From the IMG/VR virus record IMGVR_UViG_3300006167_000001: DNA of 64,000 bases; one strand, 5' to 3'. Numbering within the stretch: position 1 is the stretch's first letter; each line of letters begins with the position of its first letter. A program made the position numbers and the translations under genes. A model generated the notes under the pieces. It saw only the letters and a program-made list of their open reading frames with translations. It had not been told where the DNA came from and searched no databases. Shown here piece after piece: positions 752 to 63,840 of the stretch. This stretch comes from a virus. Lineage: Duplodnaviria; Heunggongvirae; Uroviricota; Caudoviricetes.

Positions 752-807
752 TTTACACTATCCTTTCGCAGAAAAGACATCCCTTTTTATGAAGGGAGGT
801 TGTTCTG

Positions 808-1029: not shown

Positions 1030-1039
1030 ACACCGAATT

Positions 1040-10271: not shown

Positions 10272-10339
10272 AGGCAGAGCCGCGTAACAGCGGCTTTTGT
10301 CTTTGTTCCGCAGATTTTACAAATCGTATTATGGAGAGG

Positions 10340-10411
10340 AGACAGTTAGCTCAGTTGGTAGAGCGCAACCTGAAATGGTTGAGGTCATCGGTTCGAGTCC
10401 GATACAGCCTC
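10340..10411 (+). tRNA. tRNA-Phe(GAA)-like element with aberrant anticodon loop (possible pseudo-tRNA)
   Basis: Canonical D arm TA-GCTC-AGTTGGTA-GAGC and T arm ATCGG-TTCGAGT-CCGAT. Anticodon stem CAACC/GGTTG encloses only 6 nt (TGAAAT; GAA at 10372-10374). Acceptor stem has 2 mismatches (A3-C70, A5-A68). Directly preceded by the conserved early motif. Confidence 0.5.
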
Positions 10412-10445
10412 TCTAATTTTTTCGTCGAGGAAAGGAGAAACAGGA

Positions 10446-19719: not shown

Positions 19720-19968
19720 ATGGCAAAGAAGAAAAATATCGTCCCCATCAACTCTATGCAGGACCTGGTTGACTTGGTCAATCACAACTCCCAGGTTCTC
19801 GATCGGCGGACCAAAAAGCTGGTTAAGAGCGCCCGGAATATGAAGATTCTGTGCTTCATCGCGGTAGGCTATGCCATTTACACCGCCATCGAATGCCGGA
19901 AACAGGAAGAACAGCTCTATCAGCTTTCCATCAAGGTGAAGAAGCTGGAGCACAACGAAGGGGAGTAA
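19720..19968 (+). CDS. small membrane protein
   Basis: RBS GGAGACT. TM ILCFIAVGYAIYTAI. Confidence 0.45.
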   Translation: MAKKKNIVPINSMQDLVDLVNHNSQVLDRRTKKLVKSARNMKILCFIAVGYAIYTAIECRKQEEQLYQLSIKVKKLEHNEGE

Positions 19969-19976
19969 GCGATCCA

Positions 19977-22900
19977 ATGTTAGACTTCTTGATGATATCC
20001 ACGCGCCCAGGTAAGCGCGGCATCATCGAGATCTACCCAAGGTTTATCATCAAAAAAAGCAGCGACCTCATGATAAGAGGCGGAGACTTCTACGCTGTTT
20101 GGGTCGATGACCGTGGGTTATGGTCGACCGATGAACAAGATGCGGTTGACTTGATCGACCGCGAATTAGACCAATATGCTGAGGAGAACCGCCAGCGCTT
20201 TGACAACAACATTCGTGTCCTCCATATGTGGGATGCTGAGACTGGCATGATCGATTCATGGCATAAATACTGTCAGAAACAGATGAAAGACCAGTTTCAT
20301 ATGCTCGATGAAGAACTGATATTTGCCAACACCAAGACCGGAAAACGAGATTATGCCAGTAAGTCTTTGAGTTATCCTCTGGAACCTGGAGAGACACCGG
20401 CATGGGAGAAACTCATTAGCACTTTATATTCTCCAGAGGAGCGGCACAAGATCGAATGGTGTATTGGTTCTATCGTAACCGGCGCTTCCAAGAGGCTGCA
20501 AAAGTTCATGGTGTTCTACGGAGCCGTTGGCACCGGTAAAAGTACCATCATCAATGTTATCCAGCAACTCTTCGATGGGTACTACACCAGCTTCAATGCC
20601 AAAGATCTTGGCTCCTCCAGCAATGCTTTCGCATTGGAGGCGTTTCGTTCAAACCCGCTGGTGGCGATTCAGCACGACGGGGACCTCTCACGCATTGAGG
20701 ACAATACCCGCATCAATAGTTTGGTGTCTCACGAGCTGATGACCGTCAATGAGAAGTTTCGGTCCGCCTACTCAAACCGATTCAAGGCGTTCCTTATCAT
20801 GGGTACAAACAAGCCCGTAAAGATTACGGACGCCAAGTCAGGCATCATCCGTAGACTGATTGACGTGTCTCCTACGGGGGATAAGGTTCCGCCGGGAGAG
20901 TATCGCACGCTCACCAAGCAAATTCCTTTTGAGCTCGGCGGCATCGCCTATCACTGTCAGGAAGTATATTTGGAAGACCCTGACTATTACGATGACTATA
21001 TCCCTATCTCAATGCTCGGAGCCTCTAACGACTTCTACAACTTTGTCGTTGATTCTTACCATGTGTTTAAGCGGGAAGATGGTGTTTCTCTGAAATCCGC
21101 TTGGGAAATGTACAAGACCTATTGCGACGATGCGAAGGTTCTGTATCCCTTGTCTCGAATGATATTTAAGGAAGAATTGCGAAACTACTTCCGAGAATAC
21201 GAGGAGCGATTCAACATGGAGGATGGAACTCGTGTGCGGAGCTACTATCACGGGTTTCGGACAGAAAAGTTTGAGGAACCTGCTTCGGACGAAAAGGAGG
21301 GAACTGCAAGTGCGCGAAACACTGACCATCAACCAACGATTGAGTTCGCAGAAGGTATTTCTTCCGTCTTTGATTCTTGCTGCACAGATTGCCCGGCTCA
21401 GTATGCAGGAACCGAAGGAACCCCGCAGCGAAAATGGGAGAGAGTTCGCACTAAACTTTCGCAACTGGACACCTCCCAGCTCCACTATGTAAAGCTGCCG
21501 GAGAACCATATTGTCATCGACTTTGATATTCCGGACGAACAAGGTAATAAGTCCTTTGAACGGAATCTGGCCGAGGCGAGTAAATGGCCGGCGACATATG
21601 CAGAGGTAAGCAAGAGCGGCTGCGGCATCCATCTGCACTACATCTATTCCGGAGACGTGACTCGGCTCAGTCGGATTTATGATGACCATATTGAAATTAA
21701 GGTCTTCACCGGCAATAGCTCACTACGCCGGAAACTTTCCAAATGCAACAACCTGCCTATCGCTACGATAAGCTCTGGATTACCGTTGAAAGGGGAAAAC
21801 AACGTGGTAAATGCCAAAGTGGTTCAAAGCGAGAAAGGGCTTAGACTCCAGATTAAACGTAATCTCAACAAAGAGATCCATCCGGCTACTAAGCCCAGCA
21901 TCGACTTTATCTACAAAATTTTGACGGATGCGTATGAAAGCGGCATGACCTATGATGTCACCGATATGCGCAACGCCGTCCTGGCCTTTGCAGCTAATAG
22001 CAGCAACCAGGCGGAATACTGCATCAAGCTTGTGAACAAGATGCCGTTCAAATCCGCCGAAGATGGCCCGGGAGTAAAAAACGACGAGGCTAAGCTCGTC
22101 TTTTACGACGTGGAGGTGTTCCCGAACCTGTTCTTGGTGAACTGGAAAATTGAAGGACCCAACCAACCCGTTGTAAGGATGATTAACCCGAAGCCCCAGG
22201 AAATCGAGGAGCTGATGAAGTTCCGTCTCGTCGGGTTCAACTGCCGCCGGTACGACAACCATATTCTCTATGCTCGTCTGATGGGCTATACGGAAGAGCA
22301 GCTCTACAACCTCTCCCAGAAGATCATTAGCAGCGAGAAGAAAGCCAAGAGCAACAACTGCTTCTTCGGTGAGGCCTATAACGTCTCTTATACGGACGTT
22401 TATGACTTCTGCTCCAAGAAACAGAGCCTGAAGAAATGGGAGATCGAACTCGGCATTCACCATCAGGAGTTGGGACTTCCTTGGGATCAGCCTGTTCCCG
22501 AGCATTTGTGGCAAAAGGTTGCGGAATATTGCGACAACGATGTCATCGCAACCGAAGCAGTGTTCAATGCTCGCAAGGCTGACTTTGTGGCTCGTGAAAT
22601 CCTGGCTGACGTGGCCGGCATGACGGTCAATGACACCACCAACACTCTGACCACCAAAATTATATTTGGAGGGAACAAGAAACCCCAGGATCAGTTCAAC
22701 TACCGCGACATGGGTGACACGAACCAGATCTACGACCCCGACCGGGATCTCCCGTTCGAGATGGGACCGAAAGAGTTCGATGAGTTCACGGTTTTCGACA
22801 AGAAGGGTCGTCCCATCTTCCCGGGCTACAAGTTCGAGAATGGTAAGTCCATCTATCGCGGCGAGGAAGTTGGTGAAGGCGGATACGTCTATGCTGAGCC

Positions 22901-24116
22901 TGGTATGTACGGCAACATCGCTCTGCTGGACATCGCCAGTATGCACCCGTCAAGCATCATCGCCGAGGTCCTGTTCGGCCCTGAGTTCACCAAGCGGTTC
23001 CAGGAAATCCGGGATGCCCGTGTTGCCATCAAGCATAAGGACTTCGAGAAGGCGAAGAAAATGCTGAATGGCGCTTTGGCGAAGTACCTGACAGATGAAG
23101 GAGCAGCGGCTGACTTGGCTCAGGCTCTGAAGATCGCCATCAACTCGGTGTATGGCTTGACTTCGGCCAGCTTCGAGAACCCATTCCGGGACAACCGGAA
23201 CAAAGACAATATTGTTGCCAAGCGTGGAGCCCTGTTCATGGTCAACCTCAAACATGAGGTCCAGAAACGGGGCTTTACTGTTGCCCACATCAAGACGGAC
23301 TCCATCAAAATCCCCGATGCGACACCGGAGATCATCAAGTTCGTCATGGACTACGGCGAGAAGTACGGCTATACCTTTGAGCATGAGGCTACCTATGACC
23401 GGATGTGCCTCGTGAACAATGCTGTCTACATCGCCAAGTATAAGGACGGTAAGCACGCCGGCGAGTGGACGGCCACCGGCACCCAGTTCCAGATTCCCTA
23501 TGTGTTCAAGAAGTTGTTCAGCCGTGAAGAGATTACCTTTGAGGACATGTGCGAGACCAAGAGTGTGACCAGCGCACTCTATCTGGACATGAATGAGGAT
23601 TTGCCAGACATATCAGCGTATGAAAAAGAGCACGCGGCCCTTTGGAAAGATATTTGCAATGTACAGCTTCCCCATGATTCTGAGATGGAGCGAAAATGCG
23701 CAAGGGCTGAAGAACTGTCTCAGCTTATTGAACAGGGACACAACTACATCTTCATCGGAAAAGTCGGCCAGTTCTGTCCGATAAAGCCCGGATACAATGG
23801 CGGCCTGCTTCTGCGAGAGGTCATTGACAAAAAGACAGGCACAAAGAGCTATGCCGCAGCTACCGGGGCCAAGGGTTATCGCTGGCTGGAATCTGAGATG
23901 GTCAAACATCTGGAGAAAGAAGACGGTATTGACCGGAGCTACTATGACGCCATGGTTGATGCGGCCATCCATGATATTTCCCAGTACGGTGACTTCGAGT
24001 GGTTTGTGTCTGATGACCCCTACATTCAGTCGAATCCTTCGGACAATATCCCGCCCTGGGAGACCCCAGGCGAACCGTGGCAGGTGGAGTCGGCGACGGT
24101 ATTTGATGTGCGTTGA
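19977..24116 (+). CDS. SF3/P-loop helicase + AEP primase-polymerase (PrimPol) + family-B DNA polymerase (phi29-like) fusion protein
   Basis: Walker A FYGAVGTGKST. AEP motifs IVIDFDIPDE and SGCGIHLHY. Exo I FYDVEVF, Exo III YCDNDVIATEAVF. Pol motif A DIASMHPS, motif B KIAINSVYG, motif C IKTDSI, KxY AKYKDGK. Confidence 0.9.
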   Translation: MLDFLMISTRPGKRGIIEIYPRFIIKKSSDLMIRGGDFYAVWVDDRGLWSTDEQDAVDLIDRELDQYAEENRQRFDNNIRVLHMWDAETGMIDSWHKYCQKQMKDQFHMLDEELIFANTKTGKRDYASKSLSYPLEPGETPAWEKLISTLYSPEERHKIEWCIGSIVTGASKRLQKFMVFYGAVGTGKSTIINVIQQLFDGYYTSFNAKDLGSSSNAFALEAFRSNPLVAIQHDGDLSRIEDNTRINSLVSHELMTVNEKFRSAYSNRFKAFLIMGTNKPVKITDAKSGIIRRLIDVSPTGDKVPPGEYRTLTKQIPFELGGIAYHCQEVYLEDPDYYDDYIPISMLGASNDFYNFVVDSYHVFKREDGVSLKSAWEMYKTYCDDAKVLYPLSRMIFKEELRNYFREYEERFNMEDGTRVRSYYHGFRTEKFEEPASDEKEGTASARNTDHQPTIEFAEGISSVFDSCCTDCPAQYAGTEGTPQRKWERVRTKLSQLDTSQLHYVKLPENHIVIDFDIPDEQGNKSFERNLAEASKWPATYAEVSKSGCGIHLHYIYSGDVTRLSRIYDDHIEIKVFTGNSSLRRKLSKCNNLPIATISSGLPLKGENNVVNAKVVQSEKGLRLQIKRNLNKEIHPATKPSIDFIYKILTDAYESGMTYDVTDMRNAVLAFAANSSNQAEYCIKLVNKMPFKSAEDGPGVKNDEAKLVFYDVEVFPNLFLVNWKIEGPNQPVVRMINPKPQEIEELMKFRLVGFNCRRYDNHILYARLMGYTEEQLYNLSQKIISSEKKAKSNNCFFGEAYNVSYTDVYDFCSKKQSLKKWEIELGIHHQELGLPWDQPVPEHLWQKVAEYCDNDVIATEAVFNARKADFVAREILADVAGMTVNDTTNTLTTKIIFGGNKKPQDQFNYRDMGDTNQIYDPDRDLPFEMGPKEFDEFTVFDKKGRPIFPGYKFENGKSIYRGEEVGEGGYVYAEPGMYGNIALLDIASMHPSSIIAEVLFGPEFTKRFQEIRDARVAIKHKDFEKAKKMLNGALAKYLTDEGAAADLAQALKIAINSVYGLTSASFENPFRDNRNKDNIVAKRGALFMVNLKHEVQKRGFTVAHIKTDSIKIPDATPEIIKFVMDYGEKYGYTFEHEATYDRMCLVNNAVYIAKYKDGKHAGEWTATGTQFQIPYVFKKLFSREEITFEDMCETKSVTSALYLDMNEDLPDISAYEKEHAALWKDICNVQLPHDSEMERKCARAEELSQLIEQGHNYIFIGKVGQFCPIKPGYNGGLLLREVIDKKTGTKSYAAATGAKGYRWLESEMVKHLEKEDGIDRSYYDAMVDAAIHDISQYGDFEWFVSDDPYIQSNPSDNIPPWETPGEPWQVESATVFDVR

Positions 24117-26821: not shown

Positions 26822-27838
26822 ATGAAACCGTTTTGGCAGAGACCGCCTAAGAAAACTAAGAAGAAAAAGCGAAAGCCCAAGGCTGCTCCGCAAAGTGATG
26901 CTTTGAAACCGCTCCCAAAATCGAAGCCTGCGCCTTGGGTTCCTCCACATCCTATAATACCGAAAGCGCCCTCTATTGAGGACATAGCGAAACCCCCTAT
27001 GACCTATCAGATCTCACCCGCTTCAAAGAAGGACGAGAAACCGATTCAGCCTTCTCTTCCCACAGAGCAAAAAGTGATTCGCCATAGAGACGAGCATATA
27101 CGGAAGGATTTTCTGAAGGCGTTCCGGAGCTTGACTAACCGTTGGCGTTCCTGGGATATTTGGACCGACTTTATTACCATGGCCGCCTGCACTATTTCAA
27201 ACTCGGTGGACAAGCTCCACTTCGATGAGCGGGAAAAGACTTATCTTCGGATTATCAAGAAGTACAGCAAACAGGAGCAAGAAATCTTTCCACAGTTGTT
27301 TGCTTATGTGGTAACTGCTTTAGAAGAAAATCCTGAACAGGACTTTCTCGGTGATATTTACACCGAACTTGGCCTGAACAGTAAGGAGCATGAGCAGATA
27401 TTTACGCCGTACAACGTTTGTCATTTCATGGCTGAGATCACGATTGACGATCTTGCAGCGCAAGTTGAATCGAAAGGTGTCGTTGAGATTCACGACTGTT
27501 GCTGTGGTGCCGGAGCGATACTAATTGCGGCGTCAAATGTTGCAAAGGAAAAGCTCGAAAAAACCGATTTCAACTACCAGAATCATATTTTGGTCACGGG
27601 GCAGGACATCGACTATCTTGTAACCATGATGTGCTACATTCAGCTCTCACTGCTCGGTATGGCCGGATATTTCAAAGTCGGCAACGCTCTCAGCGACCCA
27701 ATGACAGATAAGGATAGTTTAGACAATTATTGGTTCACTCCAATGTATTTCTTCCCTGTTTGGCATTATCGGAGAGTCTGGCACAGTATAGGCAAACTGT
27801 TTGAGCCAAATGAAGACGAAATTGAAACCGGAGGATAA
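26822..27838 (+). CDS. N6-adenine methyltransferase-like SAM-binding protein lacking NPPF/Y motif, with Lys/Pro-rich N-terminal tail
   Basis: GQIFTPYNVCHFMAEI plus IHDCCCGAGAILIAA (HsdM-like motif X/I) and GQDIDYL. No NPPY/F downstream. Confidence 0.4.
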   Translation: MKPFWQRPPKKTKKKKRKPKAAPQSDALKPLPKSKPAPWVPPHPIIPKAPSIEDIAKPPMTYQISPASKKDEKPIQPSLPTEQKVIRHRDEHIRKDFLKAFRSLTNRWRSWDIWTDFITMAACTISNSVDKLHFDEREKTYLRIIKKYSKQEQEIFPQLFAYVVTALEENPEQDFLGDIYTELGLNSKEHEQIFTPYNVCHFMAEITIDDLAAQVESKGVVEIHDCCCGAGAILIAASNVAKEKLEKTDFNYQNHILVTGQDIDYLVTMMCYIQLSLLGMAGYFKVGNALSDPMTDKDSLDNYWFTPMYFFPVWHYRRVWHSIGKLFEPNEDEIETGG

Positions 27839-28061: not shown

Positions 28062-28513
28062 ATTTTAAGTCAGGCACTATTCTCTACGGGAAAGAATGAT
28101 TGGGCAACGCCGCAGGAGCTCTTTGATGAGCTTGATGCCGAGTTCCATTTCACGCTTGATCCCCGCGCAACTCCGGAAACGGCGAAGTGCGCTAAATTCT
28201 ATACGGAAGAAGACAACGGACTTGCCCAGGATTGGACTGGAGAGACGGTGTTCTGCAATCCTCCCTACTCTGACCAACAGCAGACCGAATGGGTCAAAAA
28301 GTGCTACGAACATGGAGTCCGGGGGGGGGGGTAGCAGTTATGCTGATCCCGGCCAGAACCGACACAAAACGCTTCCATGAATACATTTATGGAAACGCGG
28401 AAATACGCTTTATCAAAGGCCGGCTGAAGTTTGGTGGATGCGAAAACTCTGCGCCCTTCCCCTCCATGATCGTTGTATTCGGAAAAGAACCTACTGAAAG
28501 GAGGCCGCGGCCA
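28062..28513 (+). pseudogene. phage Dam-family N6-adenine DNA methyltransferase interrupted by an 11-nt poly-G tract (frameshift); no canonical start codon
   Basis: N-part DWATPQELFDELDAEFHFTLDP...FCNPPYS...KKCYEHGVRGGG* stops right after G11 (28321-28331). The next frame continues VAVMLIPARTDTKRFHEYIYGNAEIRFIKGRLKFG...SMIVVF and runs without a stop into the helicase. G9 or G12 would restore the frame. Confidence 0.6.
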
Positions 28514-29755
28514 ATGGGACGCATAAATCTCCGTGACTACCAGCTCGACGCTATCAAGCAGATGAAAAACGGATGCATCCTGTGCGGCGGCGTCGGAAGC
28601 GGTAAATCCCGCACTTCCCTTGCATACTACTACGATTTGCAAGGTGGCAATCTTCTCGCATCGGATGAAGTCGCCATGAAGAATCCGCAAAATCTCTATA
28701 TCATCACGACAGCCCGGAAACGGGATACCTGCGAGTGGGAAGGGGAACTGGCTCCGTTCCTCCTCTCTACTCATCCTGAGTGCAACTACTACAAGAACAC
28801 TGTGGTTGTGGACTCATGGAATAACATTGGAAAATACACAGAAGTCAAGAACGCATTCTTTATATTTGACGAGCAGCGGGTAGTTGGTTATGGCGCGTGG
28901 ACAAAAGCCTTTCTAAAGATCACCAAGGCCAACAACTGGATTCTACTGTCCGCTACACCTGGGGACACTTGGCAGGACTATATTCCTGTCTTCATTGCCA
29001 ACGGGTTCTATCGCAATAAAACTGACTTTGTCGACCAGCATGTCAACTATGACTGGCGGGCTAAATACCCGAAAATCGACAGCTATCGAAACACTGGTCG
29101 TTTAATTCGGTTACGCAACAGCATCCTCGTAAACATGGACTTCAAGCGGCAAACCGTTTCTCATCACGAGGACATCCCCGTTCCGTATGATATTTCCAAA
29201 TACAAAGACATCATGCGGAAACGTTGGAATCCTTGGGAGGACCGTCCAATCGAAACGGCAGCGGAATTGTGTATGGCACTTCGGAGAGTTGTCAATTCTG
29301 ATGACGCCCGGTCGGTTGCTGTGCTCGAAATCTTGGAGGATCATCCCAAGGCCATCATCTTTTACAGCTACGACTATGAACTGGAGATTCTCCGCTCCCT
29401 CGGATATTCGGAGGGTACGGAGGTCGCAGAGTGGAACGGCCATAAGCATCAAGAGATCCCGACCGGAGACAAATGGGTTTACTTGGTTCAGTACACTGCT
29501 GGCTGCGAGGGGTGGAATTGCATCACGACTGACACCATTATATTCTACTCTCAGCAGTATTCGTATAAGGTGGCCACGCAGGCTGCTGGACGAATTGACC
29601 GCCTCACAACACCGTACCATGACCTGCACTACTATCATCTGAAAAGCTTCTCTGGAATTGACCTCGCCATCAGCAAGGCTCTCAAACAGAAGAAGAATTT
29701 CAACGAGGGTAAGTTTGTGGGATGGACTACAAAGCCAATGCCAAGAGCCGCATAA
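28514..29755 (+). CDS. SF2 (SNF2/DEAD-like) helicase
   Basis: RBS GAAAGGAGG. Walker A GGVGSGKS. Motif II FIFDEQ. Motif III LSATP. Motif VI QAAGRIDR. Confidence 0.8.
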   Translation: MGRINLRDYQLDAIKQMKNGCILCGGVGSGKSRTSLAYYYDLQGGNLLASDEVAMKNPQNLYIITTARKRDTCEWEGELAPFLLSTHPECNYYKNTVVVDSWNNIGKYTEVKNAFFIFDEQRVVGYGAWTKAFLKITKANNWILLSATPGDTWQDYIPVFIANGFYRNKTDFVDQHVNYDWRAKYPKIDSYRNTGRLIRLRNSILVNMDFKRQTVSHHEDIPVPYDISKYKDIMRKRWNPWEDRPIETAAELCMALRRVVNSDDARSVAVLEILEDHPKAIIFYSYDYELEILRSLGYSEGTEVAEWNGHKHQEIPTGDKWVYLVQYTAGCEGWNCITTDTIIFYSQQYSYKVATQAAGRIDRLTTPYHDLHYYHLKSFSGIDLAISKALKQKKNFNEGKFVGWTTKPMPRAA

Positions 29756-41575: not shown

Positions 41576-42796
41576 ATGAAAAAAGAAATCAAAATAGTCA
41601 TCGGGGCAAATTTCGGCGATGAGGGTAAAGGCCTTATAACAGATTATTTCTGTCATCAACTGCTTGTTGCCGGGCATGATGTACTCAACATCCGGCATAA
41701 TGGCGGAGCGCAAGCAGCTCATAATGTTGTTACGCCCGATGGAAAGCAGCATGTGTTTAGCCACTTCGGCGCAGGGAGTTTCAACCCCAACCTCGCCACC
41801 TACTTGGCCGGTGAGTTCATCCTTAACCCAATTCTGTTTTGTCGGGAGTGGGATGAGCTCGAAAAGTTAGGCGTTGCTCCTAAAGTCTATATCAACAAAA
41901 ACTGCCGTATCACAACCCCATATGACATGATGCTCAACCAAATTCTTGAGCGTCGTAGAGGTGATAATCGGCATGGGAGTTGCGGAATTGGGATTAACGA
42001 AACCATTGAACGCTACAATTCGTTCCACGCCAATGTGTTTGGCTGCAATACAACGGCCACTGATATTCGTAAGCGGTTATTCTCTGATGATCTTAGTAGC
42101 TACAAAAACGAACTTCATATGCTTGTAACATGGTATATTCCGATCAGACTGTCGGCTCTTGGAGTCACGTTGACAAAAGAGGAGCATGAACTCTTTGAAA
42201 ATCAGACCATTATGGATAATTTCCTTACCCAGGTGCAGGAAATGATGTCTCGTTGTGTTGTTGTGGATGACACTATCATTCGCAATTATAGTGGCCTCGT
42301 CTTTGAAGGCGCTCAAGGCTTGCTTCTGGATACTGACTACCTCGTATTTGCCCCGCATCTCACCAGCTCTAAAACCGGTTCCTACAACCCGAAGAAAATC
42401 CTTTTGGAAAATGATTTACAGAACGAAGACATTGAGTTCTGCTATGTCACTCGTTCCTACTTCACTCGGCATGGCTTTGGTCCGTTCCCTACCGAATGCG
42501 ACAAAAAAGAGTTGTTTGGAATGGATGTCGAAGAAAAGTACAACCATGAGAATGAGTTCCAGGGGAAGTTCCGTTTTGGATATTTTGATACCAGCCGTTT
42601 CAGTTGTGCATTCCATGCTGATCTGGCATATATGCTGGATAGCTTTCCTAATTCGGACGGTGTCATCGCAATGACCCATTTGGATAAAACCGATGACATG
42701 ATATTCGCTTCGGATGGAAAAATTCCGGCAAGAAATCTTGAACATCTCAAGTATGTCAGCTATGGCGAAACGAGAGACTGCGTGAAAATCAAATAA
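41576..42796 (+). CDS. adenylosuccinate synthetase homologue (PurA-like; candidate PurZ)
   Basis: GANFGDEGKGLITDY (P-loop), NGGAQAAHNVV, GSCGIGINET. C-terminal THLD in place of PurA TKLD. Markedly lower GC than flanks. Confidence 0.8.
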   Translation: MKKEIKIVIGANFGDEGKGLITDYFCHQLLVAGHDVLNIRHNGGAQAAHNVVTPDGKQHVFSHFGAGSFNPNLATYLAGEFILNPILFCREWDELEKLGVAPKVYINKNCRITTPYDMMLNQILERRRGDNRHGSCGIGINETIERYNSFHANVFGCNTTATDIRKRLFSDDLSSYKNELHMLVTWYIPIRLSALGVTLTKEEHELFENQTIMDNFLTQVQEMMSRCVVVDDTIIRNYSGLVFEGAQGLLLDTDYLVFAPHLTSSKTGSYNPKKILLENDLQNEDIEFCYVTRSYFTRHGFGPFPTECDKKELFGMDVEEKYNHENEFQGKFRFGYFDTSRFSCAFHADLAYMLDSFPNSDGVIAMTHLDKTDDMIFASDGKIPARNLEHLKYVSYGETRDCVKIK

Positions 42797-47881: not shown

Positions 47882-48328
47882 ATGTCTACATACAACGACT
47901 ACTATGGAGATGAAATATGGCCTCCGATTGTTAAGGAGGAATGCAGCATGACCAAAGAAGAGCAGGTCATCGAGACCATCAGAAAAGGGCCGGGTATGAG
48001 CCCGAATGAGTATCAGAAGCTGGCGCTTCGGACGGCATCCGAGGAATCCATGAAAGATCCTTTGCTGAACGGCCTGCTGGGTCTCGGAGGTGAAACTGGC
48101 GAGTGCCAGGATCTCTATAAGAAGCACCGCTTCCAGGGCCATGAGCTCGACAAGGCTAAGATGGCCAAGGAGCTGGGTGACGTGTCCTGGTATTTGGCGC
48201 TCACGGCCTATGCCATCGGCTATAACCTGGAGGATATTTTCAAGATGAACATCGAAAAGCTCCGGGCCAGGTATCCGGATGGCTTCGATGCTGACCACAG
48301 CCTCCACCGGCAGCCCGGGGATATTTAG
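47882..48328 (+). CDS. MazG-like nucleoside triphosphate pyrophosphohydrolase
   Basis: EYQKLALRTA...GLGGETGECQDL...KELGDVSWYLALTAYAIGYNLEDI (EExxE/MazG fold signature). Confidence 0.8.
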   Translation: MSTYNDYYGDEIWPPIVKEECSMTKEEQVIETIRKGPGMSPNEYQKLALRTASEESMKDPLLNGLLGLGGETGECQDLYKKHRFQGHELDKAKMAKELGDVSWYLALTAYAIGYNLEDIFKMNIEKLRARYPDGFDADHSLHRQPGDI

Positions 48329-48712: not shown

Positions 48713-48925
48713 TCAATTTGGCTGGTGACTGACTGAAGCCGAGGATACGCTTTTCAAATGGAATTCACCATAAGACAGGTCTGTATCCCGGTTATATTTT
48801 GCATTGGCGTAAACAGTTACGCAATAACACATCCCGATCACGAGAATCGCGGTGACGGCAATCATGGGATTCCCGAGGTCAAGGGTTGATTGTTGGGTAA
48901 CAGGAACTGCTGAGGCATTAGTCAT
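48713..48925 (-). CDS. small membrane protein (only internal minus-strand gene)
   Basis: RBS TAAGGAGG 8 nt before the ATG on the minus strand. TM MIAVTAILVIGMCYCVTVYA. Confidence 0.5.
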   Translation of the reverse strand: MTNASAVPVTQQSTLDLGNPMIAVTAILVIGMCYCVTVYANAKYNRDTDLSYGEFHLKSVSSASVSHQPN

Positions 48926-49013
48926 GGTCGAAAACCTCCTTATCAGGCTTCGACACAATGGCCTCATTTATATTACCATGAACCTTTTGAATTTGCAAGA
49001 GAGGAGTTGCTTT

Positions 49014-49337
49014 ATGACTGAAAAAGTTATGCGGCACAAGGAACTCTGTGACGGGCTGAACACCTTGTACGCTCGCAAGAACCACGACTACGGCGACAGC
49101 TTCCACCAGACATTTGTCGAGGAGGGGTTGGCTATGGCCCGCATCCGGCTGGGGGACAAGTTCTCCCGCTTTAAGACCCTGTCCCGTATCTCCCCCACCG
49201 ACAGCGCTCAGCAGCAGGTTACTGATGAGTCCATCCGGGACACGCTCCTCGACCTCGCCAACTATGCCATTATGACCGTTCTGGAGCTGGATCAGGCGGA
49301 GGCCGAGCGGGCTGATCCTTACAGCGGGGAGGATTAA
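49014..49337 (+). CDS. DUF1599/Nmad-like protein
   Basis: KNHDYGDSF...LLDLANYAIMTVLEL pattern. Confidence 0.4.
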   Translation: MTEKVMRHKELCDGLNTLYARKNHDYGDSFHQTFVEEGLAMARIRLGDKFSRFKTLSRISPTDSAQQQVTDESIRDTLLDLANYAIMTVLELDQAEAERADPYSGED

Positions 49338-57224: not shown

Positions 57225-57461
57225 ATGAGCTTATCACGATTAGCCACCAGGTGCCGAACTTGTCCGTTCGTAGACACCTGCGACCATAAAGAGATGGAAG
57301 CCTACGGGGTTCTACCTCTTTCGACACAGCAAGAGATTATTATATTCTCAGAACCCAGCGGGGAAGACCTGATACGAGCGGCCAAGGAAGTCAATACGGA
57401 CATGCTCATCAAAGAGATTGCCCGTGTATTCCAGGTGCCTGAACGACTGCTCAGGAGGTGA
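57225..57461 (+). CDS. hypothetical protein
   Basis: 78 aa. RBS AAGGAGAATG. Confidence 0.4.
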   Translation: MSLSRLATRCRTCPFVDTCDHKEMEAYGVLPLSTQQEIIIFSEPSGEDLIRAAKEVNTDMLIKEIARVFQVPERLLRR

Positions 57462-57479
57462 GTAAAATGCGGAATCTGA

Positions 57480-57900
57480 AGTAAGCAGTGGTGGCGATTT
57501 TGGCCCGGATCTGTCTAACTTAGGATAGAAATTCTTCTAAGCTAAGATAGAATTCGGGCCAGGATCTGCTACTATCTTTTGTAGTTGCAGGTCAAAATTT
57601 GGCCAGTTTTCTGCCCACTTGCCCACTTTTGTTTTTGAATTGGTCAGTTTTTTGAAGGCTGGAAAGGCCTTGTACGGACGTTTTGGCCAAAAAAGTGGGT
57701 TTTTGCCCATTTATTTTTCAAAAGTGGGCAGGCGGAAACCGTTGCGGCACAAAGATTTGCGGGTTTTCTGCCCACTTTCCCACTTTTTCTTTACACTTAA
57801 ATGCGAAAAAAAAATAAAGAAAAAATATATAAAGTGGAAAATAAAAGTGGGCTTTTGGCCAAGGTCAAACCATAACATAAAATTTGCGTTTAGAATCGTC
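57480..57900. repeat. iteron cluster + AT-rich tract (putative replication origin / multi-operator region)
   Basis: Eight or more copies of AAGTGGGC/GCCCACTT in both orientations. Four copies of TTTTGGCC. Direct repeat GGCC(C/A)GGATCTG x2. TAGGATAGAA/TAAGATAGAA. ~60-nt A-rich stretch. Confidence 0.6.
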
Positions 57901-57921
57901 ATAGAAAGGAGACGAACGACT

Positions 57922-58203
57922 TTGAACGAACAATTTGCAATCGGTTCTGTTCCCGTGTCTATAGCAGCCAAAGTGTATGGAAGAGATGCATCTTGGGTTA
58001 GGGCCGGTATCGTATCTGGTTGGCTACCTATCGGAAAAGCTACCAGAGATGGAAAGCTTGTAACCACCATTGAAGAGATGGACTCGAAATACGGACGTAT
58101 CAATTATTATATTTCTCCCAAGCGACTCTACGAGGAAACCGGCTATGTGTGGAAGGGAGAGAAAACAGTAACTGAACTTGAACACAGTAGCGCTCCAGCA
58201 TAA
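57922..58203 (+). CDS. excisionase/AlpA-like HTH protein (paralog of 6650..6901)
   Basis: TTG start after AGGAGACG. VSIAAKVYGRDASWVRAGIVSGWLPIGKATRDGK. Confidence 0.55.
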   Translation: MNEQFAIGSVPVSIAAKVYGRDASWVRAGIVSGWLPIGKATRDGKLVTTIEEMDSKYGRINYYISPKRLYEETGYVWKGEKTVTELEHSSAPA

Positions 58204-58510
58204 AACTGGGGTGTATTTTTATGCCAAAAGTCGGCCATGAGTTTGAGTCTCAGCAAATTTTTTAGGCTACGTGATGACATTCCATCTTTCCTTTCTCCTG
58301 AACATGTGATATACTGACCTTGCCACACAACTTTATACTTTTTGATGGCTACGAGGAAATACCTTAGCAAAAGGTGTTCCCTCTCTTTCCTCATACATAT
58401 CGTAGCTATCGAGGGTTGTGTGGCAGCAATGGAGAGAAACACTTTTGCAGGTGCGTCTCTTCATTGGGGCGCACCTTTTTTTATTTTGTCCGGATTTTGG
58501 AGGGAAGTTT

Positions 58511-59560
58511 ATGGGTATGGAGCTGGATATTTTGCGTGGATGTGAGATAGCCCCTGTTGATGAGACTATTGATTTGGATAACGTCCAAAAATTTATCAAG
58601 CTGGAACCTACACAAGGACAGAAAATGCAGATTAGTGCTCTCATGAATCAACTTCCGGCTTTGATTGGGGTAAGTACCTTGTCAAAAACTATGATGCTTA
58701 GGTTTCCAGAAGGTGTCCAGGGCACTTTGATGCAATTGAAGAGCAATGGCGGCTACACAACTACGCTTAAAAGTTTGGAGACCGGAAAAATTACGGGGAC
58801 TGCTTGGTTGGAGTCCGCAACTCCGCAAGCAATCTGTCTCGGTGCATTTACTGCGATGTCTGTTATCTCTGGACAATATTTTCTCTCGCAAATTAACAGT
58901 AGTCTGACCCAGATTTCTTCCGGTCTTGACAAGATTCTCGAATTTCTCTATGGAGACAAGCGGGCCGAGCTTCTGTCTGAGGTCAGTTTCATCCGATTCG
59001 CTTATAAAAACTATAAATCTGTTATGGAACACAGCGAACAAAGAATTGCTACTCTTATTAGTTTACAGAATGCTAAAAAGGTTGCCATGAAGGATATTGA
59101 GTTTTATTTGTCTGACCTGGTTTCTACTATTGTTGATAAAAAGAGTAACGACGTCCAAACCATTGCTCCTAAAATGGTCCGAACCAAGGAATGTCTCGAC
59201 CTTTCATTGCAGCTCTACACAATGAGCAACCTACTGGAGGTCTACTACTCCGAGAACTATGACCCCAATTATATTTCATTCGTGCAGTCAGAAACATCTG
59301 GCTACATTGATAAATGCGAGAAACGATCTCTCAAATGTTTTGGGCAACTGCAACCGCTTCTTGCTGGGGCCAAAGAAGGTTTCTTTGCAAAAATCAATAA
59401 GGCCGAGTATATTCAAAAGGTTGATAGTATTGTGGCGGAGTTGGAAGCAACCAATAGTTCTCCCCTTCAGACTACACTTCAGACCGCGCTGGATGAAACA
59501 AGCAAAGAAAAGCAGTATTATTTGAACCAAGATGGCGCTGTATATTTGAAAACGGCGTAA
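58511..59560 (+). CDS. hypothetical protein with one TM (low-GC island)
   Basis: 350 aa, ~41% GC. Upstream extended -10 TGATATACT. Confidence 0.5.
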   Translation: MGMELDILRGCEIAPVDETIDLDNVQKFIKLEPTQGQKMQISALMNQLPALIGVSTLSKTMMLRFPEGVQGTLMQLKSNGGYTTTLKSLETGKITGTAWLESATPQAICLGAFTAMSVISGQYFLSQINSSLTQISSGLDKILEFLYGDKRAELLSEVSFIRFAYKNYKSVMEHSEQRIATLISLQNAKKVAMKDIEFYLSDLVSTIVDKKSNDVQTIAPKMVRTKECLDLSLQLYTMSNLLEVYYSENYDPNYISFVQSETSGYIDKCEKRSLKCFGQLQPLLAGAKEGFFAKINKAEYIQKVDSIVAELEATNSSPLQTTLQTALDETSKEKQYYLNQDGAVYLKTA

Positions 59561-59961
59561 CCAGGAGGTGAAATATTATGGCCTCTAAAAAATCGAATGG
59601 CGGAAGGAAGGCCATTGCTCCTTCTGTGATATCTGCCTTGACAATAGCCCCGGCCATAATCAAAGCGATTGAGGAGCTAATGGATAAGTTTCCCCTTCTA
59701 TGATTGCCTGAACCTGTTGACAGATGGAACAGAAGTAGATATCAAAGGCTATCTTTCTTCTGAAGACACAGCATTCGCAATGAAGGTAAAAGAGTCGATG
59801 GAACGATCTTAACCCCTCCTGCCAAAATTATATTTTCAGAACAGAGACGCCGATTATGACGTCTCTGTTTTTCTTTCCGCCAAAAAAACAGACTCTTTTA
59901 TGGAGAGAAGAGGGAATGTGTCAAACTTTTTCTGTTATTTCTGTTGAAAGGAGGCCTTTTC

Positions 59962-60279
59962 ATGGCCAGGAGTTCCCGCTTGGAGAGTGGTTTTCAGGAC
60001 CGGCTCATCAATAAACTCAAAGATCTCTTTCCTGGGTGCATGGTCTTCAAGATGGACCAGATCCAGGGCATTCCCGACCTGCTTGTCCTCTACAAGAATA
60101 AATGGGCCTCCCTGGAATGCAAGAGGTCTGCGGGGGCAAAGAGACAGCCGAACCAAGAATACTACGTCGGGAAGATGAATGAGATGTCTTTCTCTCGTTT
60201 TGTCTCCCCCGAGAACAAGGAGGAAGTGCTCAATGAGCTCCAGCAGGTCTTTGCAGAAAAGGAGGACGATGAATTGTGA
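59962..60279 (+). CDS. PD-(D/E)xK nuclease (VRR-NUC-like)
   Basis: GIPDLLVLYKNKWASLECKR gives D...E.K. Confidence 0.5.
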   Translation: MARSSRLESGFQDRLINKLKDLFPGCMVFKMDQIQGIPDLLVLYKNKWASLECKRSAGAKRQPNQEYYVGKMNEMSFSRFVSPENKEEVLNELQQVFAEKEDDEL

Positions 60280-60839
60280 CCTTTAGCTTTAACCGTCATC
60301 CGAATTTGGAAGGTCAGCACGCCTTCCTCAGCGCAAGCAACTATCACTGGATCAATTACAGCGAGGACAAGGTTGAGGAAACCTACTCCAGATGGAGAGC
60401 TACTCAAAAGGGAACCAAACTTCACGCATTCGCTGCTGATTGCATCCGCCTCGGGCAGAAGTTGCCCAGATCGAAGCAGACACTGAATATGTATGTCAAC
60501 GATGCCATAGGCTTCAAGATGACACCGGAACAGATCCTATACTATTCACCCAACTGCTTCGGAACGGCTGACGCAATTATATTCCGGAACGACTTTCTCC
60601 GCATCCACGATTTGAAGACCGGAGAAACGCCGGCCAAGATGGAGCAGCTGATGATTTATGCGGCGCTCTTCTGTCTGGAGTATGGTATCAAACCCAGCGA
60701 GATCGGGATGGAACTTCGTATTTACCAGAATGATAAAGTTCTCTGCCACAACGCCACTGTGGAAGACATCTTCCCGATCATGGACCGTATCATCACATTC
60801 GACAAAATCATCAACAGAATGAGGGAACAGGAGGGGTAA
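60276..60839 (+). CDS. PD-(D/E)xK-like nuclease family protein
   Basis: GTADAIIFRNDFLRIHDLKTG. Confidence 0.45.
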   Translation: MTFSFNRHPNLEGQHAFLSASNYHWINYSEDKVEETYSRWRATQKGTKLHAFAADCIRLGQKLPRSKQTLNMYVNDAIGFKMTPEQILYYSPNCFGTADAIIFRNDFLRIHDLKTGETPAKMEQLMIYAALFCLEYGIKPSEIGMELRIYQNDKVLCHNATVEDIFPIMDRIITFDKIINRMREQEG

Positions 60840-60842
60840 AGC

Positions 60843-63560
60843 ATGAATCCGATTCAGGACGATGACATCCTGATGCACTATGGCGTCAAAAGACGTTCTG
60901 GGCGCTATCCGTGGGGTTCCGGCGACAACCCCTTCCAGCATGGCGGCGACTTCCTCAGCCGCGTCGAGGAGCTTCAGGCCCAGGGCAAGGCTGAAAAAGA
61001 GATTGCCGATGAGCTGAAGATGTCTACGACGGATCTGCGGATGCAGGTTCGGGTGGCGAAGCATGAGCGGCGTATGGTTCTGGCCGACCGGGCGAAATCT
61101 TTGAGAGAAGAGGGTAAGACCCTTGACGAGATCGCTAAAATCATGGGTTACAACAACGACTCCTCGGTTCGGGCCCTTCTCAATGAGAACACCGCCTCCA
61201 ACAAAAATAAAGCGCGGCAGACTGCGGAACGGTTGAAGCAGGAGCTTGCAGAAAAAGGCGCCCTTGATGTTGGCACCGGGGCTGAGCGTGAGCTTGGCGT
61301 TTCCAGCGGTGTCCTTCAGGAGGCGCTTTTCATTTTGGAAACCGAAGGGTATAACCGATTCGGCGTTGGTGTTCCTCAGGTCAACAATCCGAAGAACCGC
61401 ACCATTACGCCAGTTATATCCGTACCGGACATTGACCAGCGTCAGGTTTATCAAGACCTCGCTTTGGTCAAGTCCGTCGGAGAATATCACAGCACTGACG
61501 GCGGAGAGTCCTGGGATAAGCGAGAATACCCGGCCAGTATCGGCTCTGACCGGGTAAAAATCCGCTATGCCGAGGAAGGTGGCCTTGGGAAGGACGGCGT
61601 TATCGAGCTTCGTAGAGGCGTTGCTGATTTGGACTTGGGCGCTTCCCACTATGCTCAGGTCCGAATAATGGTTGATGGAACCCACTATCTTAAGGGTATG
61701 GCCATGTACTCCGATGACATGCCGGATGGTGCAGACATTATATTTAACACCAATAAACGATCCGGAACCCCGAAGATGGATGTTCTGAAAAAGATCCAGG
61801 ATGACCCGGACAATCCCTTCGGGGCGTTTATCAAAGCGAATGGTCAAAGCTACTACCCCGATCCTAATGGTAAGTACATCGACCCTGAGACTGGAGAGAG
61901 GCGGTCGTTATCGGCAATCAACAAATTAAAAGAAGAGGGAGACTGGGATAGGATGAGTAAAAACTTATCTTCTCAGTTTCTTTCTAAGCAGCCCATCAAG
62001 CTGATTCAGACCCAGTTGGACTTGACCTATGCGGATGCGGCGGATGAGTTTGCCGAAATCTGCTCTCTGACCAACCCTACTGTGAAGAAGAAGCTGTTGA
62101 TGGACTTCGCCGACGAATGCGACTCCGCCGTCGTCCACCTGAAGGCCGCGGCACTCCCCCGCCAGAGCACCCAAGTTATCTTGCCGCTCACGGCGATGAA
62201 GGAAACCGAAATCTACGCCCCTAACTACAGGGACGGCGAGAAGGTTGCCCTTGTTCGGTACCCCCATGGCGGAACATTTGAGATTCCCATCCTGACTGTC
62301 AACAACAAGAACAAGTCAGCTATTTCTATTTTGGGCCCCCGGACTCGGGATGCGGTAGGTATCAATGCCAAGGTTGCGGAACGGCTCTCCGGTGCGGACT
62401 TTGATGGCGACCAAGTCGTTGTCATTCCTACCGGCGGGAGGGTCAACATAAAATCGACCCCCGCCCTTGCCGGATTGAAGGACTTCGACGCCAAAGTTGA
62501 ATACTCCACCGAAGGCAAGACCGGTATCCGGCTTCTCTCAAAAGAGGCCACCCAGATAGAGATGGGGAAGATTTCCAATCTCATCACCGATATGACGCTA
62601 AAAGGGGCCCCCGAGAGCGACATCGTGAAGGCCGTCAAGCACAGCATGGTGGTCATCGACGCCGCCAAGCACAAGTTGGACTACAAACGGTCCGAGCAGG
62701 AGAACGACATCTCCACCCTCCGTAAGAAGTGGCAGGGCTACATTGACGAGGCCGGCAAGGAGAGAGGCGGCGCTTCTACTCTGCTGTCTCGCCGCAAGCA
62801 GGACGTTGAGGTTCCTGAGCGCCAGGGCAGCGGCCGTATCGACAAACAGACCGGCAAGGTCGTCTACAAGGAGTCCGGCCGTACTTATCTCGACAAGAAT
62901 GGAAGAGAAGTTCAGGCCACGACCAAAATCAAGCTGCTGGACAAGACCGAAGACATTCGGACATTGTCTTCCGGCACCTTGGTTGAGGATGCCTATGCTG
63001 ACTACGCCAACAAGATGAAAGCTCTGGCCAACAAAGCAAGGCTGGAATACGTTGCGACGCCGACTTTGGCGCGCTCTGCCAGTGCTGCCAAGACTTATCA
63101 GCCTGAGGTGGATCGTCTTACTTCGGCGCTCCGTCTTGCTCAGCTCAACGCTCCTCGTGAGAGAGAGGCTCAGCGCATCGCCAACGCCCGTGTCAAGGCG
63201 AAGATTGAAGCCAACAACATCACCGACAAAGATGAGATCTCCAAGATTCGCAGAGCTGCTATCAGCGACGCTCGTGTTGAGACTGGCGCAAGCGGCAAAG
63301 GAACTCGTATCTCTATCAGCGACGGTGAATGGGAAGCGATTCAAGCTGGCGCAATCTCTGACACAACATTGAAAGAGATCCTGCGATATGCCGACTCTGA
63401 CGTCGTCCGTGAACGCGCTACACCAAGAACAAGAACTGAGGTTTCCGAAGCTCGGGCAAACAGAATCAGAGCAATGGCGAATTCTGGTCATACAAATGCC
63501 GAAATCGCTGACGCTTTGAACCTTTCGCCTTCTGCTGTGTCGAGAATTCTCAATGAATGA
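60843..63560 (+). CDS. candidate single-chain RNA polymerase related to multisubunit RNAP beta' (YonO-like), with N- and C-terminal HTH modules
   Basis: VALVRYPHGGTFEIPIL...GADFDGDQVVVIP aligns with beta' ...NRAPTLHRLGIQAFEPVL...NADFDGDQMAVHVP. HTH-like EIAKIMGYNNDSSVRALLNE (N-terminal) and NAEIADALNLSPSAVSRILNE (C-terminal). Confidence 0.5.
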   Translation: MNPIQDDDILMHYGVKRRSGRYPWGSGDNPFQHGGDFLSRVEELQAQGKAEKEIADELKMSTTDLRMQVRVAKHERRMVLADRAKSLREEGKTLDEIAKIMGYNNDSSVRALLNENTASNKNKARQTAERLKQELAEKGALDVGTGAERELGVSSGVLQEALFILETEGYNRFGVGVPQVNNPKNRTITPVISVPDIDQRQVYQDLALVKSVGEYHSTDGGESWDKREYPASIGSDRVKIRYAEEGGLGKDGVIELRRGVADLDLGASHYAQVRIMVDGTHYLKGMAMYSDDMPDGADIIFNTNKRSGTPKMDVLKKIQDDPDNPFGAFIKANGQSYYPDPNGKYIDPETGERRSLSAINKLKEEGDWDRMSKNLSSQFLSKQPIKLIQTQLDLTYADAADEFAEICSLTNPTVKKKLLMDFADECDSAVVHLKAAALPRQSTQVILPLTAMKETEIYAPNYRDGEKVALVRYPHGGTFEIPILTVNNKNKSAISILGPRTRDAVGINAKVAERLSGADFDGDQVVVIPTGGRVNIKSTPALAGLKDFDAKVEYSTEGKTGIRLLSKEATQIEMGKISNLITDMTLKGAPESDIVKAVKHSMVVIDAAKHKLDYKRSEQENDISTLRKKWQGYIDEAGKERGGASTLLSRRKQDVEVPERQGSGRIDKQTGKVVYKESGRTYLDKNGREVQATTKIKLLDKTEDIRTLSSGTLVEDAYADYANKMKALANKARLEYVATPTLARSASAAKTYQPEVDRLTSALRLAQLNAPREREAQRIANARVKAKIEANNITDKDEISKIRRAAISDARVETGASGKGTRISISDGEWEAIQAGAISDTTLKEILRYADSDVVRERATPRTRTEVSEARANRIRAMANSGHTNAEIADALNLSPSAVSRILNE

Positions 63561-63576
63561 AAGGAAGTGAGAGCGA

Positions 63577-63840
63577 ATGGCTCGTTGCGCTTTGACGACA
63601 ATCGATAATCCCTATGACCCTTTTACCCAATTCGACGCCTGGTTCCAGTTCGATGAGGGCAAAGGCTACCATTCCTGTGCCTATTTGGCGCGTATCGCTC
63701 GTACTTCCGATCAGCTCTCCGGCGCTGAGAACGAACAGGAAATCGAGCGTGCCATTGATGACATCATCAAGTACAATCCCCTCGGTATCTATAAAAAAGT
63801 CAAGACAACTGCTCAGCCTGAACCTGCGGTGACAGCCTAA
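63577..63840 (+). CDS. hypothetical protein
   Basis: 87 aa. RBS GAAAGGAAGTGAGAGCGA. Confidence 0.45.
   Translation: MARCALTTIDNPYDPFTQFDAWFQFDEGKGYHSCAYLARIARTSDQLSGAENEQEIERAIDDIIKYNPLGIYKKVKTTAQPEPAVTA

Follow-up and report, generated by a model that had tools for sequence, protein, structure and literature searches.

The virus record IMGVR_UViG_3300006167_000001 (64,000 nt; the whole of this stretch is called the window below) is most of a prophage, and it contains a non-coding block, at 57462-57921, in which short repeats in both orientations flank an AT-rich spacer. We propose, with roughly even confidence, that this block is a cis-acting origin of lytic replication, of the iteron-plus-unwinding-element kind, in a temperate, Oengus-like siphophage that is integrated in the genome of an Oscillospiraceae bacterium. 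An initial annotation, made from the letters of the sequence alone, had offered two readings of this region, either a putative origin or a multi-operator switch worked by a duplicated Xis-like helix-turn-helix (HTH) gene. The claim of an origin is strengthened here by the finding of conserved inverted repeats around a spacer that is constrained in length and is the least stable duplex of the window, while the switch is unsupported.

The block extends from the stop codon of a 78-amino-acid open reading frame (ORF) on the left to the start codon of a TTG-initiated, 93-amino-acid ORF on the right, which is the HTH gene of the initial annotation (HTH_B). By a crude ORF model its 460 nt form the longest ORF-free gap in the window, the runner-up being 383 nt, in agreement with the earlier description of the region as the longest non-coding stretch. 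The block is composed as follows.

57462-57921, no strand assigned: the whole non-coding block, from the stop of the 78-amino-acid ORF to the HTH_B start codon, with homologous blocks in three related contigs (L003, L085 and L032).
57497-57568, plus strand: left-edge repeats ATTTTGGCCCGGATCTG / ATTCGGGCCAGGATCTG interleaved with TCTAACTTAGGATAGAA / TCTAAGCTAAGATAGAA, kept in L003 and L085.
57584-57635, plus strand: first copy of a 52-nt direct repeat, ending in the tandem iteron pair CTGCCCACTTGCCCACTTTT (auxiliary iterons).
57681-57731, no strand assigned: palindrome TTTTGGCCAAAA, then iterons AAGTGGGT (plus), AAATGGGC (minus) and AAGTGGGC (plus), their position being kept in the family alignment.
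57768-57787, minus strand: core left iteron pair CTGCCCACTTTCCCACTTTT, made of two AAGTGGGx units.
57788-57844, no strand assigned: AT-rich spacer, a candidate DNA-unwinding element, containing ATATATA and a degenerate iteron AAGTGGAA at 57832.
57845-57862, plus strand: core right inverted iteron AAGTGGGC and a TTTTGGCCAA half-site.

The repeats are clustered far beyond what composition predicts. Counted on both strands, the exact 8-mer AAGTGGGC/GCCCACTT occurs seven times in the window against 1.9 expected, a number reached by none of 100 shuffles, and five of the seven sites fall at 57613-57852. The 7-mer AAGTGGG occurs 12 times, with 7 of the 12 inside 261 nt (binomial P = 1.5e-14). Nine AAGTGGG-type sites are found with at most one mismatch, at 57613(-), 57621(-), 57693(+), 57705(-), 57722(+), 57770(-), 57778(-), 57832(+) and 57845(+), and they are spaced 8, 72, 12, 17, 48, 8, 54 and 13 nt apart. 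Two minus-strand tandem pairs (57613/57621 and 57770/57778) and four plus-strand iterons can be distinguished, and across the AT-rich spacer the sites at 57770(-) and 57778(-) face those at 57832(+) and 57845(+). The initial annotation had counted eight or more copies in both orientations, which holds only when near-copies are included, since exact AAGTGGG copies number seven. Its other repeats are present as described, namely four copies of TTTTGGCC (57498, 57681/57685 as the palindrome TTTTGGCCAAAA, and 57853), the GGCC(C/A)GGATCTG direct-repeat pair (57497-57513 and 57552-57568), and the TAGGATAGAA/TAAGATAGAA pair (57514-57530 and 57536-57552). The A-rich tract of about 60 nt was also borne out, at 57 nt and 18% GC (57788-57844). 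The 52-nt direct repeat (57584-57635 and 57741-57792, 79% identity) had been missed.

The A-rich tract coincides with the lowest-GC 100-nt stretch of the window, and no other 60-bp duplex in the window is less stable (z = +4.0). No DnaA box (TTATCCACA) was found at up to one mismatch in 57300-58000. This absence excludes only an oriC-like origin that depends on host DnaA, and it is as expected of an origin served by a phage initiator.

Conservation of the block is deep. The core 20-mer CTGCCCACTTTCCCACTTTT is present without change in more than 119 IMG/VR contigs and in 33 genome contigs, about 30 of them Clostridia, with hosts among Lachnospiraceae, Oscillospiraceae, Ruminococcus and Hungatella, and the surrounding 460 nt comes in 126 distinct versions among the loci that carry it. 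We defined the element from an alignment of 63 non-redundant versions together with counts over 113 non-identical versions. With the tandem pair set at position 0, auxiliary iterons lie at -200 to -60, and in the 63-version alignment the spacer is followed on its right by an inverted AAAAAGTGGG and then by a second half-site, TGGCC, TGGGC or TGACC. The opposed arrangement of iterons around the spacer is kept in the 113 versions, where the spacer is 54 nt long (10th-90th percentile 54-56) and has a GC content of 18% compared to 43% in the flanks. Its length is thus constant while its sequence is variable, save for an ATATATA at a fixed offset. Each of these blocks holds 3-12 exact copies of AAGTGGG (median 6), and the flanks are nearly devoid of them. 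An earlier search pattern, CACTTTTNCTTTACACTTAA, proved too specific, returning 7 loci of which two were chance matches in circular Rep-encoding single-stranded (CRESS)-like viruses.

A hairpin or cruciform formed by the inward-facing iterons was considered and rejected, as none of 11 pairs in the outer stem is compensatory and 59 of 500 shuffles gave an inner inverted repeat at least as good. The inverted iterons lose their pairing among the versions and are therefore conserved as protein sites, not as a stem. Insertions (HTH_B, a small RNA, zinc-ribbon ORFs) are found beside the block and never within it, so the block behaves as an autonomous unit. A near-identical copy (L216) lies in the genome of an Oscillospiraceae isolate from mouse gut, and the window most likely derives from a prophage very similar to the one in that isolate.

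The block has no nucleotide similarity to annotated phages at the sensitivity of blastn and no match in Rfam. Equivalent blocks are nevertheless found in cultured phages of the lineage, in the gap upstream of the RNA-polymerase cassette that is described below.

FP_oengus (Faecalibacterium), 26895-27110: a degenerate block in an unannotated 870-nt gap, with no duplex in the 58-kb genome less stable than its spacer (z = 4.8).
Mudcat (Arthrobacter; lytic, with no annotated integrase), 55.15-55.6 kb: TGCCCACTTTTG...CAAAAGTGGGCA, AAAGTGGCCA, and GCCCACT, about 60 nt of AT-rich sequence, ACTGGGCAATTGGGCAG.
1706 (Lactococcus): six copies of AACTTCGGGA in tandem pairs 11 bp apart, and a 98-nt AT-rich spacer enclosed by a 41-nt inverted repeat.
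Conley, ReqiPepy6, Annihilus and Count (Gordonia, Rhodococcus, Streptomyces and Microbacterium): repeats of their own in each, with a local stability minimum in the same gap.

All five AAGTGG[GC]C sites of the 59.4-kb Mudcat genome lie inside one 470-nt region, which is the block, and the same 8-mer is thereby kept in an actinophage whose proteins are only about 50% identical. Within the loci retrieved for Mudcat, Conley, ReqiPepy6, Annihilus and Count, too, no 60-mer is less stable than the spacer. The iterons of the lineage fall into the classes AAGTGGGC, AACTTCGGGA, TGCCAAATCTG and GTGAAATCTGA, and the left-edge GGCCnGGATCTG repeat of the window is similar to TGGCCAAATCTG in Microbacterium phage Count and to TGCCAAATCTG in Gordonia phage Conley. 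Architecture and position are thus kept in hundreds of related phages, from those of gut Clostridia to those of soil Actinobacteria, while the repeat itself changes by sub-lineage, which points to a phage-encoded reader of the repeats and to an essential function.

The genes of the prophage include the following.

1070-2305, minus strand: tyrosine integrase.
19851-24116, plus strand: fusion of a primase, a superfamily 3 (SF3)-type helicase (DUF5906) and a DNA polymerase, a candidate initiator acting in trans.
28289-29755: helicase.

The early genes further include a ligase and a single-stranded DNA-binding protein. Genes of nucleotide metabolism come next (a PurZ-like adenylosuccinate synthetase, MazG, DUF1599, NrdD and NrdG), then the block, and then a cassette that encodes an RNA polymerase (RNAP). 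The late genes (connector, large terminase, portal) lie just past the end of the window, as seen in contigs that encode its last gene, so that the block has the early replication genes on one side and the late genes on the other. Of the records of cultured phages, about 250 contain the RNAP and about 250 the primase/polymerase, and both are spread over the hosts in the same way (Arthrobacter 95, Gordonia 55, Streptomyces 54, Lactococcus 13 and Faecalibacterium 2).

In the mechanism that we propose, a phage-encoded initiator would bind the 8-bp units AAGTGGGC. The primase/SF3-helicase-polymerase fusion would be the most plausible candidate, since its helicase belongs to a class that loads itself onto origins of this design. 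At the core, two left units (57768-57787) would be engaged opposite one or two inverted right units (57832/57845) over a spacer of 54-57 bp, and this spacer, at about 18% GC and predicted to be the weakest duplex in the genome, would melt. The additional iterons and TTTTGGCC sites to the left (57584-57731) may raise the local occupancy of the initiator, and the strong host-type promoters that always lie downstream of the block could aid opening by transcription.

Several known systems offer comparisons. The origins of staphylococcal pathogenicity islands (SaPIs) have a central AT-rich region with repeats of 5-8 bp to its left and right; each side carries two or more, the two sides point in opposite directions, the total varies, and the repeats are bound by a self-loading helicase of the Rep/Pri-Rep kind (PMC9371898). 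The block is similar in having 8-bp units, a left tandem pair, one or two inverted right units, an AT-rich spacer of 54-57 bp and 3-12 sites. Unlike the SaPI origin, which lies directly downstream of rep, the block is 27-38 kb from the replicase and beside the RNAP cassette. SaPI iterons are also island-specific, whereas the repeat of the block is conserved across phyla, and its binding and melting by an initiator are our proposal.

Satellite phage P4 replicates from ori and crr with its alpha protein, which joins a primase to an SF3-type helicase and reads the octamer iterons; these are both direct and inverted, and the site is distant from the gene. The block shares with P4 the iterons in both orientations, the distance between site and gene, and, in the replicase, the P4/D5-associated domain DUF5906. 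Unlike P4, with its two separated repeat regions, there is a single block here, and a polymerase is fused to the primase/helicase. The primary origin of phage T7 is AT-rich and lies beside the gene for its own RNAP and strong promoters; transcription aids its initiation, and it has no iteron array. The block is likewise an AT-rich region near a phage RNAP gene and strong promoters. The T7 origin is downstream of the polymerase gene and is activated by promoters of the phage RNAP, whereas the block precedes the cassette and is flanked by promoters that resemble those of host sigma-A (TGnTATACT). The origins of lactococcal phages (c2 and the sk1/936 group) are non-coding, repeat-rich regions at the boundary of early and late genes, in c2 with an origin transcript. 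The block resembles them as a non-coding, AT-rich and repeat-rich region at the early/late boundary, directly abutted by a promoter-driven non-coding RNA in about half of its relatives. It differs in having no sequence similarity to them, and the small RNA is missing in half of the lineage, so it is not obligatory.

The switch reading depends on the two paralogous HTH genes, whose features are given here.

6650-6901, plus strand: HTH_A, the ancestral copy.
57922-58203, plus strand: HTH_B, a 93-amino-acid ORF and extra paralog of the 83-amino-acid phrog_6058 protein.
57855-57912, plus strand: promoter-like TTGGCC-17-TAAAAT of HTH_B, with a conserved TTAGAAT box and ribosome-binding site.

The duplication reported in the initial annotation is real, at 79% amino-acid identity (E = 2e-49) compared to about 75% as first given, and about 25 nt of upstream sequence (TTAGAAT.G.C.T.GAAAGGAG, with a -10-like box and ribosome-binding site) is indeed shared by both paralogs. 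The Xis-like label, on the other hand, finds weak backing at the level of fold. Neither the 83- nor the 93-amino-acid protein has a match in Pfam, even at E <= 10, or a sequence match in the Protein Data Bank, and comparison with AlpA and Tn916 Xis by hhalign gave no similarity (probability 0.2%). An AlphaFold2 model, built from an alignment that included FP_oengus-type sequences, has a pLDDT of 83.6 and comprises a helix-turn-helix (residues 13-33), beta-wing strands and a C-terminal helix. Its best Foldseek matches, all non-significant, are Xis of the mycobacteriophage Pukovnik (E = 0.64, TM score 0.58-0.60 on the target), BldC and the N-terminal domains of MerR proteins, and a Xis-like HTH is plausible from the model at fold level only. 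The phrog_6058 protein ranks among the best conserved and most abundant of this phage lineage, and its family comprises 4,035 clusters at 90% identity, some present on at least 1,000 contigs. The best 120 of these are 83-92% identical to the query, and among them we found no name beyond ‘hypothetical protein’, with one source label reading ‘putative starch synthase’.

FP_oengus has a single HTH copy (1627-1875, plus strand), the first gene to be transcribed away from the integrase gene (int; 146-1387, minus strand), while in the window HTH_A and HTH_B are 4.3 kb and 55 kb from int, respectively. The position of the HTH gene differs among close relatives: it precedes the block in L003 and L239, follows it in the window and L216, and is absent in L085, L240 and L242, and the block and the remaining genes are syntenic regardless of where the HTH gene is placed. 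In L085 the block directly abuts the promoter of the small RNA; in the window HTH_B sits between the two with a promoter and ribosome-binding site of its own, and by this comparison it is best described as an inserted passenger gene outside the block proper.

To define the neighbourhood of the block, all ORFs within ±5 kb of the core were clustered at 153 loci. A VRR-Nuc gene lies downstream in 108 of them (median +1.0 kb) and an exonuclease gene in 99 (+1.4 kb), followed by the RNAP. The corresponding features of the window are listed below.

59962-63840, plus strand: the cassette after the block, comprising a VRR-Nuc-like gene (to 60279), a PD-(D/E)XK/Cas4-like exonuclease (60276-60839), the RNAP and an 87-amino-acid protein.
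60843-63560, plus strand: 905-amino-acid two-barrel RNAP with HTH domains (phrog_4291, E = 0).
63577-63840, plus strand: 87-amino-acid phrog_4303 protein.

The 905-amino-acid protein is a putative two-barrel, single-subunit (YonO-like) RNA polymerase, an assignment based on its match to phrog_4291 and on the sequence GADFDGDQ, which is the catalytic DxDGD motif of the beta-prime double-psi beta-barrel. Its identity to the ‘putative RNA polymerase’ of FP_oengus is 53%, and it carries terminal HTH domains, of sigma-region-4-like and resolvase type. In the organism summary of the phage-record search, it has no BLAST-level similarity to Bacillus or SPbeta-like phage. The annotation of its homologues (among them L246 orf75 and L250 gp106) is uneven. 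In about 200 actinophage genomes they are labelled only ‘helix-turn-helix DNA-binding protein’, and the homologue of Lactococcus phage 1706 is labelled ‘structural protein’, so it may be virion-associated. The RNAP homologue is the penultimate gene before the cos end in every actinophage examined.

The case for an origin is made by clustering far above chance, by the AT-rich spacer between inverted iterons, and by a stability minimum that is global in the window and in FP_oengus, and it is joined by the D5/P4-type helicase-associated domain DUF5906 in the replicase, whose phage distribution is the same as that of the cassette. Several observations pull the other way. The GC-skew check suggested in the initial annotation gave no extremum at the block, the cumulative curve rising monotonically through it in both the window and the complete FP_oengus genome; this is a weak test and was uninformative, because the genes there are all co-oriented and the skew follows transcription. 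The block is also not next to an initiator gene (replicase 19851-24116, helicase 28289-29755, block 57462-57921) but 27-38 kb from the replication genes, at odds with the SaPI arrangement, and its constant neighbour is the RNAP cassette, not a replication gene. Strong promoters always follow the block, and a transcriptional role suits its position equally well. Lastly, adenine replacement, if present (PurZ-like, MazG, DUF1599), would undo the relation between AT-richness and low stability on which the computed values depend.

The main rival is a transcriptional reading, which we consider possible and hold tentatively, in which the block is a control or loading site for the phage RNAP, with the spacer as the melted promoter region and the repeats read by the HTH domains of the RNAP or by a partner protein, or in which it is an operator array that times expression of the cassette. 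The block always lies just upstream of the cassette, both at the surveyed loci (VRR-Nuc at about +1 kb in 108 of 153) and in cultured phages of six host genera, and the polymerase bears the sigma-region-4-like and resolvase-type HTH domains that could read it. The ATATATA at a fixed spacer offset is in keeping with this role, as is the finding that the repeat differs where the RNAP is most divergent (1706, 37% identity) and is kept in Mudcat (49%). The promoter of this enzyme class is still undefined, the YonO transcript of SPbeta starting before an unannotated non-coding RNA (PMC5467207), and if the block is a recognition site of a two-barrel RNAP it would supply that missing promoter. By analogy with SPbeta, however, a phage-RNAP promoter is expected in the gap that precedes the late genes, and AAGTGGG was rejected as a general promoter of this kind since it is missing there. 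Bidirectional sites in groups of up to 12 are moreover unlike a promoter, the next gene lies anywhere from about 50 to >700 nt away, with genes inserted between, and inspection of the sequences gave no conserved -35/-10 pair at fixed spacing in the spacer. The recognition helix in the C-terminal HTH of the RNAP also differs between phages whose iterons are identical. Since the primase/polymerase and the RNAP are distributed over the same phages, co-occurrence favours neither protein as the binder, and distribution was set aside as a discriminator. A reading that joins replication to transcription, though rather unlikely in our estimate, is that the two-barrel RNAP loads at the block, opens the spacer and makes the RNA that primes replication, so that a single element would serve as both origin and master promoter. 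Such a reading would account for why the block is tied to the RNAP/VRR-Nuc/exonuclease cassette rather than to the replicase gene, and it would also explain the HTH domains of the polymerase and the survival of the 8-mer from Clostridia to Arthrobacter phages.

It is improbable that the block is a cis site of another sort, such as a packaging recognition (pac) site, a centromere-like site for partition or anchoring, or a hotspot of recombination serving the adjacent VRR-Nuc and Cas4-like nucleases. While repeats clustered in both orientations, the adjoining nuclease genes, and the variable genes inserted on either side (suggesting a recombination-prone boundary) would be compatible with such a site, the terminase genes are 6-10 kb away, the cos actinophages have their physical ends elsewhere, and no ParA/ParB turned up among the annotated subset of ORFs. 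To our knowledge, no known pac or parS site has inverted sites set apart by an AT-rich spacer of constrained length, which further counts against them. That the paralogous Xis-like HTH proteins bind the repeats as a multi-operator genetic switch, as the initial annotation had offered, is highly improbable. The weak match to the excisionase/MerR/BldC-type winged-HTH fold, whose members often bind repeat arrays, would allow it, and the family is extremely conserved, as are the iterons, and is found together with the block on the same contigs of Clostridia phages. Yet the position of the HTH gene is unfixed relative to the block and the adjoining gene is often absent, neither the surroundings of HTH_A nor the lysogeny region of the window contain AAGTGGG, and the distance from the block to the next gene or promoter varies, with genes inserted. 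Mudcat, a lytic phage without an annotated integrase, has the repeats and no member of the HTH family (best profile hidden Markov model E-value 2.1, compared to <=1e-47 for true members). A tblastn search of 50,697 phage records likewise found the family only in FP_oengus and one uncultured phage, compared to 250 records with the cassette.

An origin made of iterons and an unwinding element is of a known kind; what is unusual here is an exact 20-nt core shared across many genera of gut Clostridia, the survival of the 8-mer in an actinophage with proteins about 50% identical, and the linkage to a two-barrel RNAP cassette. In the searchable literature on the motif, FP_oengus, phage 1706 and the actinophage clusters, no origin, phage-RNAP promoter or other cis-element is described for the lineage. 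The lineage is very abundant in human and animal guts, and about 250 of its phages, with hosts in Arthrobacter, Gordonia, Streptomyces, Lactococcus and Faecalibacterium, have been cultured. The conserved 20-nt core offers a precise origin candidate, a handle for replicons and engineering in gut Firmicutes that are hard to manipulate, and a tag for metagenomes.

Between the block and the cassette lies a variable slot, which holds a strong host-type promoter with a small RNA or small ORFs, often zinc-ribbon. Together with the leader of the cassette, the elements of this region are listed here.

58307-58485, plus strand: small-RNA locus, with extended -10 promoter TGnTATACT (58309-58317), P1 arms (58324-58333 and 58416-58425) and an intrinsic terminator (58449-58476).
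58508-59560, plus strand: 350-amino-acid ORF, 3′ of the small RNA, with no Pfam or PHROG family.
59877-59935, plus strand: ‘P2’ promoter/leader element directly 5′ of the VRR-Nuc gene of the cassette, also present in Mudcat.

The small RNA is found in 60 of the 130 loci whose sequence extends 900 nt or more downstream from the core. At about 160 nt, rod-like and structured, it is a candidate for a new family of phage small RNAs, present in about half of the block-bearing loci and matching no Rfam family. Its 52 unique versions give fold z-scores of -5.2 to -7.0, and one position of stem P1 shows three pair types (CG 12, GC 8, UA 2), while stems P2 and P3 are variable in sequence. A conserved unpaired UCUCUCUUUACUC is present, and the 3′ tail may pair with the terminator loop. 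In relatives, the slot holds genes for DUF6591, DUF7211 or zinc-ribbon proteins and resembles a hotspot of accessory genes.

The P2 element (consensus CGC..AAAAAAACA..C.CTTTTATGRAGAGA, with a GA/TC-rich hairpin) reads TTTTATGGAGAGAAGAGGGAATGTG in the window and TATAATGAGGGAGAGGGAATGTG in Mudcat, and is also found at L247:6030-6060 and at 54 other loci. It is probably the promoter and 5′ leader of the cassette. Just past the right end of the window, after the 87-amino-acid gene, a related contig has a 460-nt, GC-rich and apparently structured non-coding gap between the RNAP cassette and the late genes (L239:10265-10726), which is free of AAGTGGG. Its position is analogous to that of the ‘unannotated non-coding RNA’ of SPbeta at the start of YonO-dependent late transcription.

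Elsewhere in the window, the genes at 41576-42796, 47882-48328 and 48852-49337 encode a PurZ-like homologue (phrog_1211, Pfam Adenylsucc_synt), a MazG pyrophosphohydrolase and DUF1599 (‘nucleotide modification associated domain 1’), and from this gene content a modified base, for example 2-aminoadenine, may be present in the DNA of the phage. A tRNA-like gene at 10339-10413 (plus strand) scores 47.5 bits against the Rfam tRNA model and is given an unassignable four-base anticodon (gaaa) by ARAGORN; it could be frameshift-suppressor-like or a degenerate phage tRNA. Three paralogues of phrog_2152, a family whose label carries no function, lie within 5 kb in the early region (12137-12961, 13550-14314 and 16028-16990).

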